Positions 2,726 to 30,990 of a stretch of 64,000 nucleotides of DNA are shown here, one piece after another. Each line of letters starts with the position of its first letter. Position 1 is the stretch's first letter. The stretch covers positions 41,444-105,443 of IMG/VR virus record IMGVR_UViG_3300032397_000005. The stretch is one strand, 5' to 3'. The DNA comes from a virus. The translations under genes were made by a program, and so were the position numbers. The notes beneath the pieces are model-generated. The model had not been told where the DNA came from. It did not search any database and saw nothing but the letters and a program-made list of their open reading frames with translations.

Positions 2726-5434
2726 ATGTCCGACGCTGACGTCACCTGCGCTCAACCTGCGTCCGCATCTCGTTTCACATGTAAGTCCGGGGATCCGCGG
2801 CCGGTCCGCCACTTCTCCAGGGAGGGGGAGGACGTCTGGGACGCCGCTGGGCCGTGGACGCGTAGGACGGCGCGGATCGAGGGCGCGGGGGGAGCGGCGC
2901 TCTTCGAGCAGGAGAACGTGGAGGCGCCGGCCAGTTGGAGTCAGATGGCCGTCGATGTGGTGGCGTCGAAGTACTTCCGCGGGCGACTTGGGACCGTAGG
3001 AAGGGAGTATTCCGTCCGGCAGTTGGTGGATCGGGTGAGTAAGGAGATCTCGTACTGGGGCGGTCAGGATGAGTACTTCGAGGACGTCCCGCTCCGGGAC
3101 GTCTTCCGGGATGAGTTGACGGTCCTCCTCCTCACTCAGCGACTCTCGTTCAACTCCCCAGTCTGGTTCAACGTTGGGGTGGAGCAGACCCCCCAGTGCT
3201 CGGCCTGCTTCATCAACTCCGTCGATGACTCCATGGAGAGCATCATGGACCTGGCCAAGACGGAGGGTCTCATATTCAAGCGCGGGAGCGGGGCGGGCGT
3301 CAACCTCTCCGCGTTGCGCGGGAAGAACGAGCCGCTTAGTGGGGGCGGGACGGCCTCCGGTCCGGTTTCGTTCATGCGGGGATACGACGCCTTTGCGGGC
3401 GTCATCAAGAGCGGAGGTCGCACGCGGCGCGCGGCCAAGATCATCATCCTAAACGTGGATCACCCGGACATCCTGGACTTTATTCGCTGCAAGCCGGAGG
3501 AGGAGCGGAAGGCGCGGGTACTGGCGAGCGCCGGCTTTGGCTCCGGGTTGGACGGGGACGCGTCCGTCTGCTACCAGAACGCCAACAACGCCGTGCGCGT
3601 GACGAATGCGTTCATGATGGCGGCGGAGCGGGGGGATGCTTGGAAACTGTACGCGCGCAAGACCGGGGAGGTCATGGAGACCGTGAATGCGGCGGATCTC
3701 TGGGACGAGATCGTCTCGGCCGCGCACGACTGCGGGGACCCGGGACTGCAGTTCGACGACGCCGCGAACGCGTGGAACACCTGCTTGGTGGACGGTAGGA
3801 TCAACTCATCCAACCCTTGCTCTGAGTTCACGTTCCTCGACAACTCCGCCTGCAACCTGGCCTCCCTGAACCTCCGAAGGTTCCAACTAGAGGACGGTTC
3901 CCTGGACGTGGCGGCGTTCTCCGCGGCCGTGGAGGTCTCCATCTTGGCGCAGGACGTCCTGGTCGATCACTCCAGTTACCCCACGTCGAAGATTGCGGAG
4001 AACTCCAAGCGGTTCAGAGCGCTGGGTCTCGGGTACACCAACCTGGGGGCGTTCCTGATGGCGGCCGGTCTTCCGTACGACTCGAACGTTGGTCGAGCCT
4101 ACGCGGCCTCGTTGACGGCGCTCATGACGGGCGTGGCGTACCGCAGCAGCGCGCGGATTGCGCGGAGGAAGGGGTCATTCGAGGCGTGGCCGCGCAACTC
4201 TCGCGCCATGACGCAAGTTCTTCAGAAGCACCAAAACGCAATCCGAGGCATCGACGCCGGTCTAGCGCCGATGGCGGTCCTCGAGGCGGCGCGGGACGTC
4301 TGGGACGAGGCTCTGGCGGAGGGGGTGGCCGGGTGGAGGAACGCGCAGGTGACCCTCCTCGCCCCAACCGGGACGACTTCGTTCATGATGGACGCCGACA
4401 CCACGGGGGTTGAGCCGGACTTCTCCCTCATCAAGCGGAAGCGGCTCTCCGGTGGCGGGGAACTCCTCATGGAGAACGGCTCCATTGCGCGGGCGCTGGA
4501 GCGGCTCCTGTACGACGGGGTGGAGATCGAGCTGACGCTGAAGCACCTCCGGGATAAGGGGACGCTGCAGGGTTCCGAGGTCCTACCGGAGGACCTCGCG
4601 GTCTTCGACTGCGCGGCGGAGGACGCGGCGGGTCGGAAGATCTCCTGGACGGGACACGTCCTGATGGTGGCGGCGGTCCAGCCGTTCCTCTCCGGGGCGG
4701 TCTCGAAGACGGTCAACCTACCGGCGGACGCCACCCCGGAGGACGTTGGTCAGGTCTACCGCCTGGCGTGGCGGGAGGGTCTCAAGGCGGTCAGTGTCTA
4801 CCGGGACGGGTGTAAGCGGGTTCAACCACTGGAGCGCAAGAGCGGGAACGGGGGGAACGGGAAGTCCGTGGGGTGGGTCGCGTCGGTCCAGGTGGAGCGG
4901 GCGGCCGGGAGGGAGCGGATGCCGAGGGAGCGGGACTCCCGGACGCACAAGTTCGACATTTCCGGGCACGAGGGGTACGTCACCGCGGGGATGTACCCGG
5001 ATAGGCGGCTCGGGGAGCTCTTCGTGGTGATGGCCAAGGAGGGGAGTACGGTTCGGGGCCTCCTGGACGCCTGGGCAACCTCCGTGTCCATTGCCCTCCA
5101 GTACGGCGTGCCGTGGGACGCCTTGGCGGACAAGTTCCGGCGGATGAGGTTCGAGCCAAGCGGGTTCTCGGACAACCCGGATATTGGGGCCACGACCTCC
5201 CCACTCGACTACATCACGAGATGGGTGGATCTGCGCTTCCCGGAGGGGAGGTTCGCGGATGTTCCACCGAGGGAGGAGGCGCCGGCGGCGGTCCGGGATG
5301 TCATCCAGCGCGTGGCGGAGGTGCTCCGAGTTCACGACTCCGGACCTCCCTGCGTGTCGTGCGGCGCCATCACGGAGCCCAGCGGCGCTTGCCACCGTTG
5401 CCCAACATGTGGAACCAGCACTGGTTGCGGATAG
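2726..5434 (+). CDS. nrdJ: class II (adenosylcobalamin-dependent) ribonucleotide reductase
   Basis: FNSPVWFNVG, QCSACFI, GGRTRRAAK, catalytic SNPCSE, APTGT, VQPFLSGAVSKTVN, YRDGCK, C-terminal TSCPD-like domain and zinc ribbon; RBS AAGGAG. Confidence 0.95.
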   Translation: MSDADVTCAQPASASRFTCKSGDPRPVRHFSREGEDVWDAAGPWTRRTARIEGAGGAALFEQENVEAPASWSQMAVDVVASKYFRGRLGTVGREYSVRQLVDRVSKEISYWGGQDEYFEDVPLRDVFRDELTVLLLTQRLSFNSPVWFNVGVEQTPQCSACFINSVDDSMESIMDLAKTEGLIFKRGSGAGVNLSALRGKNEPLSGGGTASGPVSFMRGYDAFAGVIKSGGRTRRAAKIIILNVDHPDILDFIRCKPEEERKARVLASAGFGSGLDGDASVCYQNANNAVRVTNAFMMAAERGDAWKLYARKTGEVMETVNAADLWDEIVSAAHDCGDPGLQFDDAANAWNTCLVDGRINSSNPCSEFTFLDNSACNLASLNLRRFQLEDGSLDVAAFSAAVEVSILAQDVLVDHSSYPTSKIAENSKRFRALGLGYTNLGAFLMAAGLPYDSNVGRAYAASLTALMTGVAYRSSARIARRKGSFEAWPRNSRAMTQVLQKHQNAIRGIDAGLAPMAVLEAARDVWDEALAEGVAGWRNAQVTLLAPTGTTSFMMDADTTGVEPDFSLIKRKRLSGGGELLMENGSIARALERLLYDGVEIELTLKHLRDKGTLQGSEVLPEDLAVFDCAAEDAAGRKISWTGHVLMVAAVQPFLSGAVSKTVNLPADATPEDVGQVYRLAWREGLKAVSVYRDGCKRVQPLERKSGNGGNGKSVGWVASVQVERAAGRERMPRERDSRTHKFDISGHEGYVTAGMYPDRRLGELFVVMAKEGSTVRGLLDAWATSVSIALQYGVPWDALADKFRRMRFEPSGFSDNPDIGATTSPLDYITRWVDLRFPEGRFADVPPREEAPAAVRDVIQRVAEVLRVHDSGPPCVSCGAITEPSGACHRCPTCGTSTGCG

Positions 5435-25069: not shown

Positions 25070-27154
25070 ATGAGCGAGCGTCAAGCGGCGGAGGTCCAGA
25101 TCCAGCGCGACTTCGCGGACAACCCTACCGTCGCGGAGATCAAGAAGCGCAACGTGAACGTGTTGCGGGCCACCGTCCTTGGCTTGGCGCGGATCCGGGA
25201 GGAGAAGCTTTCCCGGCAGAGGGAGGCGGATAGACCCGCGTCCGGGACCGGGACCTCCGCTGGGGAGAGCAAGGCGCTACTGAACGACCCCATCTCGGTC
25301 CTCATGCAGAGCGGTCAGGTGGTTGCTCCACCGTTCGACCTCCTCACCCTGGCGGTGATGCCGGAGAACAGTACGGAACTCGGCCCTTGCATCGACGCGA
25401 TGGCCGTGAACGTGGAGGGGTTTGGCTGGCGGCTCGAGTCCCGCGTTCCGGTCAACGAGCGGACGCCGGTGGAGGTTCTCCAGATTCTGGAGGAGGAGCA
25501 GGTCATAGCGGAGAACTTCTTCAGCAACTGCTGCCCGGACGGGGAGTCCCTCGAGGACCTCCGGGATAAGCTTCGGCGGGACCTGGAGGCCACCGGGAAC
25601 TGCTACGTGGAGTTCGTGGAGGTTCCGGGGACGGGACGCCTGGACGGGTTGAATCACCTCCCCTCGTGGACGATGCGTATTGGGCGCGTGGAGCAGGAGT
25701 CCACGGAGTACGTGGACCTGGGCGTGGAGAAGATGGTCCGCTTCGTGGAGCTCCCTCCGGAGCCGAAGGAGTCGACGGAAGTACCTGAACTCGCTGACGA
25801 GGAATTCTCTGCGGATGAGGATGGGATCTCCGGACCTCCGCTGAGGCACGTTCAGGAGGCGGAGGGGGAGCCGATCCGAATCCAGAAGCAGTCGACCTTC
25901 GAGACGCAGGTCACCTACGAGCTGCGGGAGCAGGTGCGCTTCAAGCGGTTTCGTCGGTACGTCCAGCTGCGGGAACGTCAGGTCATCTGGTTCAAGGAAC
26001 TGGGGGATCCGCGCCTCATATCCAACCGAGACGGGCACGTGGTGACGCGTGAGGAGCTCCTGAGGGAGGAGAACGGCGGGGAGCAGCTTCAGCGGTTCAC
26101 GCTCCTCGGGGACCGCGTGACGGTTGCGCTCGGGATTCGGGGTTTTCCGGTCCGGGACGCGGCCAACCCGGTTCGTCATAAGCGACTCTACTCCACGCGC
26201 TCGCCCTACGGGCTCCCGCGGTACACCGGGCACCTGTTCTCCATCTTCGGTTCCCGGGCGGCGGAGGAGATCAACTTCACGACGTTCAAGAACAACAACG
26301 TTCCCTCTATGGTCATCACGGTGTCCAACGGGAAGATGGACGACGAGTCCGTCGAGCGGATCGAGGAGTTCGTGGAGGCCACGATTGCGGGGGATGACAA
26401 TTACAGCAAGTTCCTACTCTTGGAGGCGGAGCCGGTTCTGGAGGGGATGCGGGACCCGGGGTCGATGCGCATCGACGTCAAGCCGCTTACGTCTGAGCAG
26501 CACACGGACGCGATGTTCGTCAACTACCAGAACTCGAACGATGAGCGCGTTCGGCGGGCCTGGCGATTCCCACCCATCTTCGTCGGGAAGTCGGATGACT
26601 TCACGGGCAAGACGATCGAGGCCAGCCGGAAGCTCGCGGACGAGCAGGTCTTCGGGCCGGAGCGGGGGAAGGTGGACCGCTTCTTGACCCGGGACGTCCT
26701 GCTCCGAATCGGGGTGGTCTGGAGCGTGTTCCGGTCCAACTCCCCGAACGTGACGGAGAACGCGGACCTGGTCAAGCTCCTGGCTCAGGGCGAGAAGACG
26801 GGCGGGCTCACACCGCGCATTGCGCGGAGACTCATCGGGCGGATCGTGAACGAGGATCTGGGGGAGATTGACACGGATCTCCTCCCTCCGGATCAGCCGT
26901 TCTCCCTGACGTTGGCGGCCATCATGAAGACAAACTCGGCCACCGAGGCTCCCGGGGGCGGGGAACCGACGAGTCAGGGGCGGGCGGGGTTACAGGTTGC
27001 CGGTCCACCGAAGGAGTCCATCGCGGAGAGTGCGGACGACGGTGAGGTGTTCTCGTCCCTGGCGGGGATGATCCGCGCGGAGGCGGCCATGCGCTTTGGG
27101 GGGTTTGTCCCGCCCGCGCTGAAGGACGAGCCGGAGGAAGTGGAGCCGGACTGA
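25070..27154 (+). CDS. portal protein (PBSX-like)
   Basis: PPFDLLTLA, DLEATGNCYVE, YGLPRY, FKNNNVPSMVITVSNG, VRRAWRFPPIFVG; position after terL. Confidence 0.9.
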   Translation: MSERQAAEVQIQRDFADNPTVAEIKKRNVNVLRATVLGLARIREEKLSRQREADRPASGTGTSAGESKALLNDPISVLMQSGQVVAPPFDLLTLAVMPENSTELGPCIDAMAVNVEGFGWRLESRVPVNERTPVEVLQILEEEQVIAENFFSNCCPDGESLEDLRDKLRRDLEATGNCYVEFVEVPGTGRLDGLNHLPSWTMRIGRVEQESTEYVDLGVEKMVRFVELPPEPKESTEVPELADEEFSADEDGISGPPLRHVQEAEGEPIRIQKQSTFETQVTYELREQVRFKRFRRYVQLRERQVIWFKELGDPRLISNRDGHVVTREELLREENGGEQLQRFTLLGDRVTVALGIRGFPVRDAANPVRHKRLYSTRSPYGLPRYTGHLFSIFGSRAAEEINFTTFKNNNVPSMVITVSNGKMDDESVERIEEFVEATIAGDDNYSKFLLLEAEPVLEGMRDPGSMRIDVKPLTSEQHTDAMFVNYQNSNDERVRRAWRFPPIFVGKSDDFTGKTIEASRKLADEQVFGPERGKVDRFLTRDVLLRIGVVWSVFRSNSPNVTENADLVKLLAQGEKTGGLTPRIARRLIGRIVNEDLGEIDTDLLPPDQPFSLTLAAIMKTNSATEAPGGGEPTSQGRAGLQVAGPPKESIAESADDGEVFSSLAGMIRAEAAMRFGGFVPPALKDEPEEVEPD

Positions 27155-27155
27155 C

Positions 27156-29333
27156 TTGGACCTCGACAGCAAGACAGCCACCGGAATCACGCCGGAGTTC
27201 CTGGCGGAGCTCTCCCACGGGGAGTTGATCTTCCTGGCGGACGTCGTGTCTGAGCGGACGCTGGAGCCGGTCCTCCGGGAGGACGAGCGGGATCGCGCCC
27301 TGGAGACGGAGCTGGCGGAGGGGTTGGACGCGGACTGGACGGCGGACTACGAGCCGGCGTCGGAGGCGGCGCTTGCGGACCTCCCGGAGGCGGACGTGTC
27401 CGTTGAGGAGGTGGACGCGGCGCTCGGGAGGATTGGGGCCAGTCTAGACAAGCGGGACACGTCCGGAGCGCGGAAGTTGTTGCTTGGGGCGTTGACCGCG
27501 GTGGCCCTCCTGGCGCGCGGGCGGACCCGGGACCGGGTCCGCGTAAAGGACCCCAAGGCGGCGGCGCAGGTCTCCACTTCCCTCTCCCAGGCGGACAAGG
27601 GGGCGATTGAGGCAACTACCAAGGCGCAGCTCTGGTGGATCGGGGACCTCTGGGGGCAGCACCTCTCCCGGGTGATCCTGGAGACGGTTCGCCGGGAGGC
27701 GTTGGTCCGCGGGCTGGGGCGCGCGGACGTGGGGAAGGTCATGGACGGCGTCATCAACGCAAAGGTCCCGGCGGCCTTTGTTCCGGATACCTGGAGGGGG
27801 AGCAAGGAGGGGTACTTCCGGATGCTCTCCGGGACGGTCAGGTGCCGTGAGAGTACGTCCAGCGCCCTGTACTCCCTCCGGGAAGCGGGGTTCTCCCGGT
27901 ACAGGTTCGAGGCGGTCATGGATGAACGCACCTCGGACGTCTGCTTTCGCGCGGGGACGCGGGTGTTCTGCGCGGACGGGGAGCGGGACATCTCGGAGGT
28001 CCGGGTTGGAGACACCGTTATTTCCGGGCTTGGAGCGCGGAGGAGGGTGCTCAGGACCTGGTTGAATGAAGCGGAGGACTGGAGGGTCATAACGCTGACG
28101 TCCGGTCGTACGGTTACGGTAACCTCCAATCATCGGTTCCTCACGGTCCGCGGGTGGCGCCGCGCGGGGGACCTGGAGATTGGAGAGGACCTTGCCGCGC
28201 AGGAAGCACGTCCTGAAGAAACTTGCCGGGGTCTGCGAGCACTGCGGGAAGACGTTCCCCTACACCCCGTCGAAGACCAAGCCGGTCCGGAAGTTCTGCG
28301 GGCTTGCATGCTACCACGCCCGCAAGGGCGCGGAGAAGCGGGTCGAGCGAAAGTGCCTTCAGTGCGGGGAGACCTTCCACCCGTACCGGACTCACGCGGA
28401 GCAAGGGCGGGGACTGACCTGCAGCACCGTATGCCGCCGGAGGTTCTTCCGTCGGGGGCTCCCGCCGGAGGCGCTCGACCGGATCTGCGAGACGTGCGGG
28501 AAGACGTTCAGGGTCCGGCCGCTGGAGCACCTTACCGGGAAGGCGCGTCGACACTGCTCCAACGAGTGCCGGAAGCGGCGCGGATTGATCGTCTGCGAGA
28601 CCTGCGGGGTAGAGTTCGAGGCAAAGCTGACGAGCGGAGGGATTCCAAGGCGCTTCTGCTCCCGTCACTGCTACCACTCCCGGAGGACCGCAACGCGGCC
28701 GGAGGTGTTCGTTCGAGCGGTCCTCGAGGAGGCGGGTCTGGAGTTCCGCGCGGAGGAGCCGCTGGGGAGTCTTTTCCTAGACTTCTTTGTTCCGGCGCTC
28801 TCCTTGGGGATCGAGGTGGACGGGACGTACTGGCACTCTCGGGAGAACTCACGGGAGCGGGATTATGCCAAGGAGGAGGCGGTGCGGCGGGTCGGGATTC
28901 GACTCCTGCGGATCTCGGAGGAGAACACCCAGGCGCCGGACGCGGAGAAGCGGGTCCTGCGGAGTATCTTGCGCGCGCTGTTGGAACCGTCCGCGTTGTC
29001 TCAAATGCTCCGCTCCGCGTCGTAGACTTCTCCTACAACCTCTCAGTGGACGGTGACCCGACCTATGTAGTCGAGGGGGTGATTGTCCATAACTGCCGGG
29101 AACTTCACGACCGCGTGTTCGTCGTTAACGACGGCATCGACCTGATGGAGCGGGTGAACGTGGCGGACAACCCGGACGCGGTGAAGGACCTGGCCGGGTG
29201 GCGAACCGCGGACGACGTTCGCGGGATCATCGGGAAGCAAGATGCGGAGGGGGCCAGGAAGTCCCTGACGGAGTCCGGGATCATCTGGCCTCCACTCCAC
29301 GCCAACTGCCGGAGCGTCATCACGCCGGACTGA
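27156..29333 (+). CDS. MuF / SPP1 gp7-like head morphogenesis protein containing an intein
   Basis: YRFEAVMDERTSDV|CRELHDRVF after splicing; C-terminal PPLHANCRSVI. Confidence 0.92.
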   Translation: MDLDSKTATGITPEFLAELSHGELIFLADVVSERTLEPVLREDERDRALETELAEGLDADWTADYEPASEAALADLPEADVSVEEVDAALGRIGASLDKRDTSGARKLLLGALTAVALLARGRTRDRVRVKDPKAAAQVSTSLSQADKGAIEATTKAQLWWIGDLWGQHLSRVILETVRREALVRGLGRADVGKVMDGVINAKVPAAFVPDTWRGSKEGYFRMLSGTVRCRESTSSALYSLREAGFSRYRFEAVMDERTSDVCFRAGTRVFCADGERDISEVRVGDTVISGLGARRRVLRTWLNEAEDWRVITLTSGRTVTVTSNHRFLTVRGWRRAGDLEIGEDLAAQEARPEETCRGLRALREDVPLHPVEDQAGPEVLRACMLPRPQGRGEAGRAKVPSVRGDLPPVPDSRGARAGTDLQHRMPPEVLPSGAPAGGARPDLRDVREDVQGPAAGAPYREGASTLLQRVPEAARIDRLRDLRGRVRGKADERRDSKALLLPSLLPLPEDRNAAGGVRSSGPRGGGSGVPRGGAAGESFPRLLCSGALLGDRGGRDVLALSGELTGAGLCQGGGGAAGRDSTPADLGGEHPGAGRGEAGPAEYLARAVGTVRVVSNAPLRVVDFSYNLSVDGDPTYVVEGVIVHNCRELHDRVFVVNDGIDLMERVNVADNPDAVKDLAGWRTADDVRGIIGKQDAEGARKSLTESGIIWPPLHANCRSVITPD
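27942..29093 (+). mobile_element. intein (384 aa) in MuF
   Basis: Block A CFRAGTRV, block B VTSNHRFLT, block F YNLSVDGDPTYVV, block G IVHN followed by extein Cys+1. Confidence 0.93.
28192..29025 (+). CDS. putative homing endonuclease: 4 zinc-finger repeats + Vsr/DUF559-type nuclease, nested in the +1 frame of the intein
   Basis: 4x CxxCGxxF...CxxxC repeats, then TRPE...LDFFVP...IEVDGTYWH...ERD...IRLLRI; TTG start (28192 after GGAGAGG, or 28180); TAG 29023. Confidence 0.9.
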   Translation: MPRRKHVLKKLAGVCEHCGKTFPYTPSKTKPVRKFCGLACYHARKGAEKRVERKCLQCGETFHPYRTHAEQGRGLTCSTVCRRRFFRRGLPPEALDRICETCGKTFRVRPLEHLTGKARRHCSNECRKRRGLIVCETCGVEFEAKLTSGGIPRRFCSRHCYHSRRTATRPEVFVRAVLEEAGLEFRAEEPLGSLFLDFFVPALSLGIEVDGTYWHSRENSRERDYAKEEAVRRVGIRLLRISEENTQAPDAEKRVLRSILRALLEPSALSQMLRSAS

Positions 29334-29343
29334 GGAGGAGTAC

Positions 29344-30990
29344 GTGAACAAGCAGGTGACGGTACAGACCCTGATCTTGGCCAAGGAGACCTTCCCAACG
29401 GCGGCGGATGCCACAAAGTGGGTCACGGATCACGACTTTAAGGTCAAAGACGGTGCTCCGGACGAGACGGAGAGCTCCTGGCGCTACCGTCAGCGGGAGC
29501 CGGGTGAGTTCCAGGAGGGGACCTTTCGGACCATAGACATGACGGATGGCGTCCAGGCCGTGGTCGGACGCCTCAAGGAGGAGAAGATGAGAAGGAACGA
29601 GGAGTCGGTGGCGCGCGGGAACGCCCTCCTGCTTCCGCTGAACCTGTCCGTCGACAACGTCCACGACCTTGAGTTCGCGGTGGATAAGTTCCGGCAGGCA
29701 TCTGCGGCCAGGGCCTGGGCGGAGAATCACGGGATGGTTCCGCGGGAGGTCAAGGTCCGGGCGGACGCGATCTTCGCGGAGATCCTCCCGGCGGATGCAT
29801 TTGTCTTTGCGACGCTTCGCCGGGAGAAGGTCACCAGGGACGTCTTTGCGGTGGTCGGGGATCGCGTTGCTGAGATCAATGCTCTCCACGTGGTTCCGGA
29901 CGCCGACGCTTCGATGGAGGAGAAGCGGGATGTCCAGGAGGTGGATGATCCCTCCCCGGTGAGGAAGCGAGCGGAGCTCCACGTCCTGAAGGCTAAGGAT
30001 GCGGCGGATCCAATGGCGGAGGTCCGGATGTTTGGGATCGTCATGAAGCCAGACGTCCCGGACATCGAGGGGGACGTTACGTCTGTAGAGGAGATCATAC
30101 AGGCGAACGACCTGTTCATGCGGGAGTTTGGGACCGTTGGCTTCATGCATAAGAAGGACGTGACCGAGAAGGTCTCCATCATCCAGAACGTGATTGCTCC
30201 GATCGACTTCGACTTCCCGATCGACGACGGGGGGAGCAAGTCGATTGGGAAGGGAACGTGGTATCAGGAGCTCTACACGGCAGATGCGGAGCTGGTCAAG
30301 CGTATCCGGGAGAGGAAGTTAAACGGGCTCTCCATCGGGGGCTTTGCGCGGCGGGTGTCGGTGGACGGGGAGGGGGAGGTTCAGGAGGCGGTGGGGAAGC
30401 GGTCTCCGGAGCACCTGGGGAAGGCAGAGGGGGACACCCCAAAATCACGATTTGTCAACCTTCGCGTCGAGGAGGTGTCCATCGTGGACGCAGCCGCCAA
30501 CGAGGAGGAGTTCTTCATCATCAAACGGAGGAAAGACATGAGTACGAATCAGGAAACGCAGATGGCGGTGGCGCTGGTGGAACAGGTGGGGGCGGTCATC
30601 CTACCGGTGACGCCCACGTCACCGGTTGTTCCGGTGGCGGCGGCCGCACCCGCGGCGGTCACTCCGCCGACTCCGGCGGTCACTCCGCCGACTCCGGCGG
30701 TCACTCCGCCGACTCCAGCTGTTCCGGTGTCGGAGCCGGTGGACGTGGCAAAGGCGGTCCAGTCGGCCGTGAGCTCGGCCGTGGAGAAGGGTATCGCCCC
30801 GATCGTGGAGCGGCTCGACGCCGTCGAGAAGCGGCTCAGTGAGCAGGCAACGATCCGGGCGGCGGCCAAGGGGGAGTCCGTTCCGGAGACCACGGCGCGT
30901 CCGGCGGAAGCACCGGCGCAGAAGTCGAAGTGGGCGGGGACGGCGGTTCACAACGTCGTATCTCGCGCGCAGCAGAGGAAACCCGCCTAG
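29344..30990 (+). CDS. XkdF-like prohead serine protease fused to a scaffold-like tail
   Basis: FGIVMKPDVPDIEGD, GFMH, KGTW, LNGLSIGG, EVSIVD..AN; Pro/Ala/Thr linker and coiled C-terminus; upstream of the capsid gene. Confidence 0.88.
   Translation: MNKQVTVQTLILAKETFPTAADATKWVTDHDFKVKDGAPDETESSWRYRQREPGEFQEGTFRTIDMTDGVQAVVGRLKEEKMRRNEESVARGNALLLPLNLSVDNVHDLEFAVDKFRQASAARAWAENHGMVPREVKVRADAIFAEILPADAFVFATLRREKVTRDVFAVVGDRVAEINALHVVPDADASMEEKRDVQEVDDPSPVRKRAELHVLKAKDAADPMAEVRMFGIVMKPDVPDIEGDVTSVEEIIQANDLFMREFGTVGFMHKKDVTEKVSIIQNVIAPIDFDFPIDDGGSKSIGKGTWYQELYTADAELVKRIRERKLNGLSIGGFARRVSVDGEGEVQEAVGKRSPEHLGKAEGDTPKSRFVNLRVEEVSIVDAAANEEEFFIIKRRKDMSTNQETQMAVALVEQVGAVILPVTPTSPVVPVAAAAPAAVTPPTPAVTPPTPAVTPPTPAVPVSEPVDVAKAVQSAVSSAVEKGIAPIVERLDAVEKRLSEQATIRAAAKGESVPETTARPAEAPAQKSKWAGTAVHNVVSRAQQRKPA
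30655..30716 (+). repeat. 3 x 21-bp in-frame repeat (AVTPPTP)
   Basis: GCGGTCACTCCGCCGACTCCG x3. Confidence 0.9.

Follow-up and report, generated by a model that had tools for sequence, protein, structure and literature searches.

How can a phage head gene be read as one uninterrupted frame across an intein when the middle of that intein appears to encode its homing endonuclease in a different frame? The question is raised by a window of 64,000 nucleotides, the last 64 kb of the 105,443-bp IMG/VR virus record IMGVR_UViG_3300032397_000005, which comes from an uncultured phage whose genome has a CheckV completeness of 100%. On the plus strand of this window, where all of the features described below for this phage are also located, a MuF-like open reading frame (ORF) of 725 amino acids runs without a stop from 27156 to 29333. 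The first-pass annotation of this DNA had proposed that this frame contains a complete intein and that the intein's nuclease is a separate gene in the +1 frame, and the anatomy that it described (the MuF ORF, the intein, the +1 ORF, an upstream GGAGAGG, the zinc repeats and the nuclease motifs) was present in full at the positions where it had been placed. The evidence presented here indicates that the locus very probably holds a mobile class-1 intein in MuF whose homing endonuclease has a gene of its own, overprinted on the middle of the intein in the +1 frame.

The host protein is divided into an N-extein of 262 amino acids (27156-27941) that ends in VMDERTSDV and a C-extein (29094-29333) that begins with CRELHDRVF, the first residue being Cys+1. 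The N-extein, a MuF-like head-morphogenesis protein, aligned with the intein-free proteins of two related loci, L035 and L038, in which the C-extein simply runs on from the N-extein to read VMDERTSEQ/CAELHDRVF, with the slash marking the position of the insertion site; other close relatives were also intein-free. Since L035 and L038 read across the site without any insert, the boundaries of the intein are fixed. Between these boundaries, the class-1 signature residues were found as Cys1 at 27942 (in CFRAGT), a block B TSNH at 28122-28133, and VIVHN/C at 29079-29096, with HN/C itself at 29088-29096, and the splicing residues (Cys1, TxxH and HN/C) were invariant across four aligned inteins. They define an N-terminal splicing lobe at 27942-28190 and a C-terminal lobe, with blocks F and G and ending in VIVHN, at 28980-29093. 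Related loci contained 27 open frames with blocks homologous to the N-terminal lobe. The ratio of nonsynonymous to synonymous divergence (dN/dS), calculated like all dN/dS and synonymous divergence (dS) values in this study by the NG86 method between the window and a related intein-bearing locus, L002, was 0.12 for the N-terminal lobe and 0.13 for the C-terminal lobe. Only a single MuF locus was found in the whole genome, so the phage needs the spliced product, and because of this sole copy and the strong constraint on both lobes, the MuF intein would be expected to splice.

The nested gene occupies the +1 frame at 28192-29025, starting with a TTG and ending with a TAG at 29023-29025, and it encodes 277 amino acids; an alternative TTG at 28180 would give a product of 281 amino acids. 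The same ORF was annotated as a gene by the gene callers in the ENA and Logan data. A Shine-Dalgarno-like GGAGAGG at 28182-28188, which would serve the TTG at 28192, is conserved in L002, as are both TTG codons. The first-pass annotation had put the stop of the nuclease gene a few codons before block F, and this has to be corrected, as the last ~40 nt of the gene overlap the C-terminal splicing lobe, from near 28980. The product's N-terminal region contains four CxxC...CxxxC zinc modules (28234-28671), a presumed DNA-binding array that was located by regular expression and modelled by AlphaFold2 (AF2) with pLDDT scores (predicted local distance difference test) of about 80-90. This array is followed by a Vsr-like (EDxHD-type) nuclease domain at 28690-29022, with the motifs LDFF, IEVDGTYWH and ERD at 28777-28863.

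Profile searches of both frames supported this assignment. The +1 product matched DUF559 (PF04480) with 29.4 bits, above the gathering cut-off of 20.6, while its matches to MTES_1575 and Vsr stayed under their cut-offs, and a Pfam search of the MuF frame over the same interval returned zero matches. A phmmer search against PDB sequences gave 3r3p, the homing endonuclease I-Bth0305I, as the best solved relative (E 1.8e-4). The AF2 model of the nuclease had a pLDDT of 81.8, and Foldseek placed 3r3p at the top of its matches to this model (template modelling score 0.76, probability 1.0), followed by the Vsr structures 1cw0 and 1vsr (E. coli Vsr). In an alignment of 14 homologues, D197, D210 and H215 were invariant and E208 nearly so, and most of the zinc-module cysteines were invariant with two nearly invariant; the conserved nuclease residues were related to the published EDxHD positions through a HMMER alignment to 3r3p. 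By sequence and by model, the +1 product is thus predicted to be a Vsr-like nuclease that belongs with the homing endonucleases of the I-Bth0305I (EDxHD) type. It represents a separate architectural branch of that family, because the enzyme has an N-terminal array of four Cys4 zinc modules in place of NUMOD or helix-turn-helix (HTH) motifs.

The same arrangement was found in diverged relatives. L002 contains a 729-amino-acid MuF ORF and a 277-amino-acid +1 ORF laid out as in the window, with 81% identity in the nuclease and 65% in the N-extein, and the sole indel between the two overlaps is of 12 nt. Further +1 layouts in MuF-like genes were present in L003 and in L004/L005 (each with 37% nuclease identity) and in L078 (30%). 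The GC content of these loci was 64% in L003, 50% in L078 and 46% in L004/L005, and the range over four lineages was 46-64%. In all of the +1 lineages, the insertion lies at the DERT motif of the MuF-like gene, in L005 three residues further upstream. The intein of L005 (at 3511) has the junctions DERT/C...HN/CPVC, compared with DERTSDV/C in the window, and its nuclease has approximately nine zinc modules versus the four of the window enzyme. Candidate starts for the L005 nuclease are only TTG codons at 3665-3704, at or before block B, and its N-terminus would overlap the N lobe of the intein. When intein-bearing MuF homologues of about the same length were sought, only the cluster of the window itself, the L002-type protein and one marginal match were obtained.

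Given two genes over one interval, the signature of selection would be expected to follow the frames, and this is what was observed. The ~262 MuF-frame codons over the nuclease gene (28194-28979) form a stop-free filler with no domain, composed to 54% of arginine, glycine, alanine and proline compared with 32% in the exteins, and with pLDDT values of only 22-30 in an AF2 model of the whole intein that was poor overall, so that it has no confident structure. Over approximately 28180-28990, the +1 frame had a GC content at third codon positions (GC3) of 0.86 and the MuF frame one of 0.51, versus 0.79-0.90 for the MuF frame elsewhere in MuF, and the coding signal therefore shifts to the +1 frame between the splicing lobes. 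The dN/dS was 0.23 for the nuclease in its own frame and 1.35 for the filler in the MuF frame. Differences between the window and L002 peaked at MuF codon position 3 in the exteins and lobes and, in the overlap, at MuF position 1, equivalent to position 3 of the nuclease codons. These results show purifying selection on the nuclease frame and on the splicing lobes and a relaxed protein constraint on the filler, and they bear out the proposal of a contiguous intein with a separate +1 nuclease gene and an open, unconstrained filler.

The filler is nevertheless kept free of stop codons, which was assessed by permutation of synonymous codons. Across the nuclease coding sequence of the window, the MuF frame contained 0 stops versus 4.4-4.8 expected (P about 0.004-0.006), and the host frame of L002 contained 0 versus 5.6 (P = 0.0005). 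The same was observed in L003 (0 versus 6.8 expected, with 9 stops in the third frame), L078 (0 versus 17.2, with 21) and L004/L005 (0 versus 30.9, with 29), and the third frame held 5-29 stops across the +1 loci. Codons ending in T and placed before a codon starting with AA, AG or GA were absent from the overlap (0/60), compared with 21/216 elsewhere. The host frame is held open by selection. The first-pass annotation had suggested that a high GC3 leaves the overlap naturally poor in stops and would ease such an invasion, but the stops are actively avoided, and since the host frame is also stop-free at 46-50% GC, the high GC3 of the window helps and is not the cause. The comparison of homologues that it had called for showed the +1 layout in L002, L003, L005 and L078, with host-frame stops depleted in each and with dN/dS between the window and L002 following the frames.

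We then considered whether the element moves. Between the window and L002, dS was 0.38-0.44 in the splicing lobes and the nuclease, 0.83-0.99 in the exteins and 0.89 in the next gene, and a Fisher test on the third-position differences gave P = 5.6e-9. Half the silent divergence, together with empty sites in the closest MuF relatives, is as expected for an intein and a nuclease that moved as a unit after their host phages had diverged, and the pair looks mobile on this comparison. One alternative is that the nuclease is an immobile remnant or a domesticated gene, within an intein that is inherited vertically and merely tolerates the overlap. Such a state would have a precedent, as some VSR-like-bearing inteins look vertically inherited according to Gosselin, Arsenault and Gogarten (bioRxiv 10.1101/2025.01.02.630785), but it is very unlikely here given the low dN/dS of the nuclease with its conserved catalytic residues and zinc ligands, a dS of the element about half that of the exteins and the adjoining gene, and the empty sites in the closest relatives.

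A second question is how the nuclease would be translated. The nuclease frame of both L002 and L003 contains a stop 3 nt upstream of the start codon; the L003 nuclease starts with ATG, and in L005, a GGAGG lies 8 nt upstream of a TTG. These upstream stops, together with the start and Shine-Dalgarno-like features, favour internal initiation over a programmed +1 frameshift, and the nuclease would thus be translated independently. Were the ribosome instead to shift into the +1 frame, with no independent initiation, the product would be a fusion of the MuF N-terminus, the N-terminal part of the intein and the nuclease, an arrangement that fits the weak TTG starts and a +1 frame that in the window opens at 28123, ahead of the start; such a fusion also has a natural in-frame counterpart in L107 (described below), where an intein N-half is fused to a nuclease of this type. 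This is very improbable, as the upstream stops of L002 and L003, 3 nt from the start, leave hardly any space for a shift site, the starts in the window, L002 and L005 follow Shine-Dalgarno-like motifs, and neither a slippery sequence nor a stimulatory structure was seen.

The +1 layout itself does not derive from assembly error, which is excluded, as judged from the sequences compared, because independent assemblies and diverged relatives share the layout: the 90% cluster of the precursor contains three 725-amino-acid members, from JGI, ENA and Logan assemblies, that differ pairwise by no more than one residue. The check for compensating indels that the first-pass annotation had called for, made across these assemblies and the diverged lineages, gave no sign of a frameshift artefact. 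The weakest alternative, in which the nuclease is, or formerly was, an in-frame domain of the intein that two compensating frameshifts (sequencing errors or recent mutations) moved out of frame, is effectively refuted: although both transitions could fuse smoothly (...GDLEIGE to LPRRKH... and ...LRALLEP to VRVVSN...), the precursors are near-identical in three independent assemblies, the offset is equal in L002, L003, L005 and L078 even at a protein divergence of 19-70%, the nuclease start of L002 and that of L003 are immediately preceded by an in-frame stop, the avoidance of host-frame stops reflects long-term selection for read-through, and the 65 loci surveyed included no relative with a contiguous in-frame nuclease. 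An exact-pattern scan of viral contigs for both frame-transition sequences returned no match, in a scan from which records near the window's own may have been absent.

For a mobile intein with an overprinted nuclease, the following mechanism is proposed. Ribosomes on MuF would traverse the ~262 filler codons, producing a meaningless and probably disordered segment, and the N- and C-terminal Hint lobes would then splice the exteins to give ...DERTSDV-CRELHD..., so that the filler leaves with the intein. The nuclease would be made through internal initiation, at the TTG at 28192 after GGAGAGG or at the TTG at 28180. Its zinc modules would bind DNA and its C-terminal Vsr-like/EDxHD domain would cut, the predicted target being intein-less MuF alleles at the conserved DERT..V/C site, and repair of the cut allele would copy in the intein and the nuclease together. 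Both the specificity of cleavage and homing are inferred from the sequence.

Several observations weigh against this account of the locus. The nuclease starts are weak (TTG), with a short spacing between the Shine-Dalgarno-like motif and 28192, and RNA folding at the nuclease start in four lineages yielded no hairpin that beat shuffled sequences, which leaves unsupported a translational hairpin of the kind associated with the fractured genes of Dassa et al. (2009; PMC2677866). The Hint-type Pfam scores of the window precursor are below their cut-offs (31.2 versus 35.8 bits for PF14890, and likewise for the other Hint models), so that the Hint matches are of sub-threshold strength; the homologous inteins of L064, L067 and L087 exceed the cut-offs of the Hint/intein profiles. 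The AF2 model of the whole intein, built from a four-sequence alignment, was poor (mean pLDDT 33.7, with the C lobe unmodelled) and is uninformative on splicing competence. Finally, the low dS of the nuclease may partly reflect the constraint of dual coding; the singly coded splicing lobes are, however, equally low.

The principle of an intein with an overprinted endonuclease is already known, from 1998 and from preprints of 2025-26, and the novelty claimed in the first-pass annotation was overstated, as out-of-frame and antisense homing endonucleases in inteins have been published. Gosselin, Arsenault and Gogarten (bioRxiv 10.1101/2025.01.02.630785) described contiguous actinobacteriophage inteins with an antisense LAGLIDADG, an antisense VSR-like or a frame-3 endonuclease VII-like homing endonuclease, reported that minor capsid (MuF-type, IPR006528) proteins hold only non-canonical inteins, and proposed an origin by invading free-standing nuclease genes. 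Those inteins share with the window a contiguous layout, an endonuclease ORF in another frame between the splicing blocks, and an open and unstructured host frame. They differ in that their VSR-like enzyme is antisense and their same-strand enzyme endonuclease VII-like, whereas that of the window is a sense +1 VSR-like enzyme with a zinc-module array; moreover, they come from actinophages and the type described here from uncultured phages of 46-64% GC, and zinc is absent from the text of Gosselin et al. A cyanobacterial dnaX intein with an out-of-frame +2 LAGLIDADG ORF was analysed by Phillips, DeSimone and Gogarten (bioRxiv 10.64898/2026.09.14.751524), with a low dN/dS in the nuclease frame, a raised one in the host frame, and a secondary invasion of a mini-intein proposed; the first notice of this out-of-frame endonuclease is credited, as cited, to Gorbalenya (1998). 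The dnaX intein also has an overlapping ORF inside the intein and frame-specific selection, but its host gene is cellular, its enzyme is a LAGLIDADG and its ORF is +2.

Three further systems are comparable in part. The fractured genes of Dassa et al. contain split inteins whose halves are separated by a free-standing endonuclease gene of the Vsr-like or GIY-YIG kind. Like the window, they have a separate Vsr-like nuclease gene within an intein, whose 3′ end overlaps the C-terminal part by 6-69 bp in their case and by ~40 nt in the window; unlike it, their host is split into two ORFs that require trans-splicing, compared with a single continuous 725-amino-acid frame kept open by selection, and the model in Figure 5 of that work does not contain a read-through, out-of-frame state. 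I-Bth0305I and the EDxHD family, which are associated with phage introns and inteins (Taylor et al. 2011, PMC3239194; PDB 3R3P), share a C-terminal Vsr-like catalytic domain after an N-terminal DNA-binding region, but I-Bth0305I has NUMOD/HTH motifs and belongs to a group I intron, whereas the window enzyme has four zinc modules (up to ~9 in L005) and belongs to an intein. The out-of-frame HNH insertions of the ShiLan type, located in methylase genes of phages (Arsenault et al. 2025, PMC11855218), are likewise homing endonuclease genes that overprint another frame of a host ORF without closing it; they have no splicing domains, and the insert remains in the host protein, whereas the intein of the window removes it. 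As far as the literature was searched, the sense-strand +1 version with a Vsr-like, zinc-module nuclease in MuF is undescribed.

To place the window enzyme within its family, 65 loci encoding relatives of the nuclease were surveyed. Five were sense-nested, always in the +1 frame of the host, 18 were antisense-nested in a long open frame, and 42 had no spanning second frame. With profiles of the window's intein lobes, both lobes were recovered from the sense hosts as well as from 17 of the 18 antisense ones, and the antisense hosts were MuF or portal-MuF proteins where checked by Pfam. The 17 contiguous inteins with an antisense nuclease (L007, L063, L064, L066, L067, L071, L073, L074, L079, L082, L085-L088, L098, L102 and L106) came from metagenome loci of 36-66% GC and have the antisense VSR-like layout reported for actinophages. 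In L097 (2778-5327, minus strand), the nuclease is antisense within an 850-amino-acid open frame that matches N6_N4_Mtase (DNA methylase); intein lobes were not detected there by the window-lobe profiles, and the locus may be an intein-less overprinted insertion resembling the ShiLan type. The mycobacteriophage matches H15-H17 also overlap a methylase annotation, and the nearest relatives in cultured phages, with 26-28% identity, were free-standing or methylase-associated mycobacteriophage genes. A paper on phiCbK and a match to Microcystis phage MaeS were examined and set aside as irrelevant.

Two loci contain related nucleases in split inteins. L107 (1-2956) is a portal-MuF fusion gene in which an Ala1 intein (ALVKGT...) has its N-half joined in frame to a nuclease of the zinc-module/Vsr type that stops at 2794-2796, and its C-half (...GIAVHN/CRC) encoded by an ORF of its own (2705-2956), which shares ~89 nt with the 3′ end of the nuclease. 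The arrangement resembles a split intein whose N-half is fused to the nuclease, at another MuF site (PPNGFN/CRC). L138 (3-1878) contains a fractured dUTPase, with the N-part and the intein N-half extending to 575, a free-standing zinc-module/Vsr nuclease at 756-1619, and the intein C-half with the C-part of the dUTPase from 1582, overlapping the end of the nuclease; it is a fractured gene of the Dassa type with a nuclease of this family. In a quick tree, the intein-nested nucleases clustered and the sense ones branched near the base of the cluster, with weak deep support, a topology that is compatible with one as with several origins of the sense state. The first-pass annotation had suggested that the window might be an intermediate between contiguous and split inteins, and this idea is plausible because related nucleases are free-standing (L138), fused to an N-half (L107), or antisense in contiguous MuF inteins. 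A broader reading, which we offer tentatively and regard as somewhat doubtful, is that this family, mostly located in MuF-type inteins, is seen in every state that the gene-breaking model of Dassa et al. calls for or leaves out: as a free-standing gene between the two halves of a split intein (L138), in fusion with such an N-half (L107), +1 (the window, L002, L003, L005 and L078) and antisense (the 17 loci).

The surroundings of the window locus are those of an ordinary tailed-phage head module, in which a portal gene (25070-27154; PF04860) is followed by the MuF-like gene and then by an XkdF-type protease/scaffold gene (29344-30990; PF14550). The interrupted window protein had no match to Phage_Mu_F (PF04233) in Pfam; the intein-free L035 reached 23.5 bits against a cut-off of 29.6, a weak match, and the more distant, intein-bearing L067, L087 and L107 exceeded the cut-off. 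The C-terminal part of the XkdF-type protein contains a short tandem repeat rich in proline and threonine, AVTPPTP, in three copies, and the L002 homologue is 122 amino acids longer, with an insert in the middle of the protein.

These results add a clean, multi-lineage case to the recently recognised inteins with overprinted endonuclease genes, with unusually strong evidence for a selected open host frame, as 0 stops were observed versus ~31 expected at 46% GC. Automated annotation will call such inteins mini-inteins or decayed inteins and may overlook the nuclease gene. The combination of a zinc-module array with a small dimerising nuclease domain is of possible interest for nuclease engineers. 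The locus supports the view of intein origins in which the splicing domain comes first and the nuclease invades later. If the states seen in this nuclease family are linked by descent, the sense +1 arrangement would be an unreported, stable and selected intermediate, and the family would allow a direct test of how inteins gain and lose their endonucleases.

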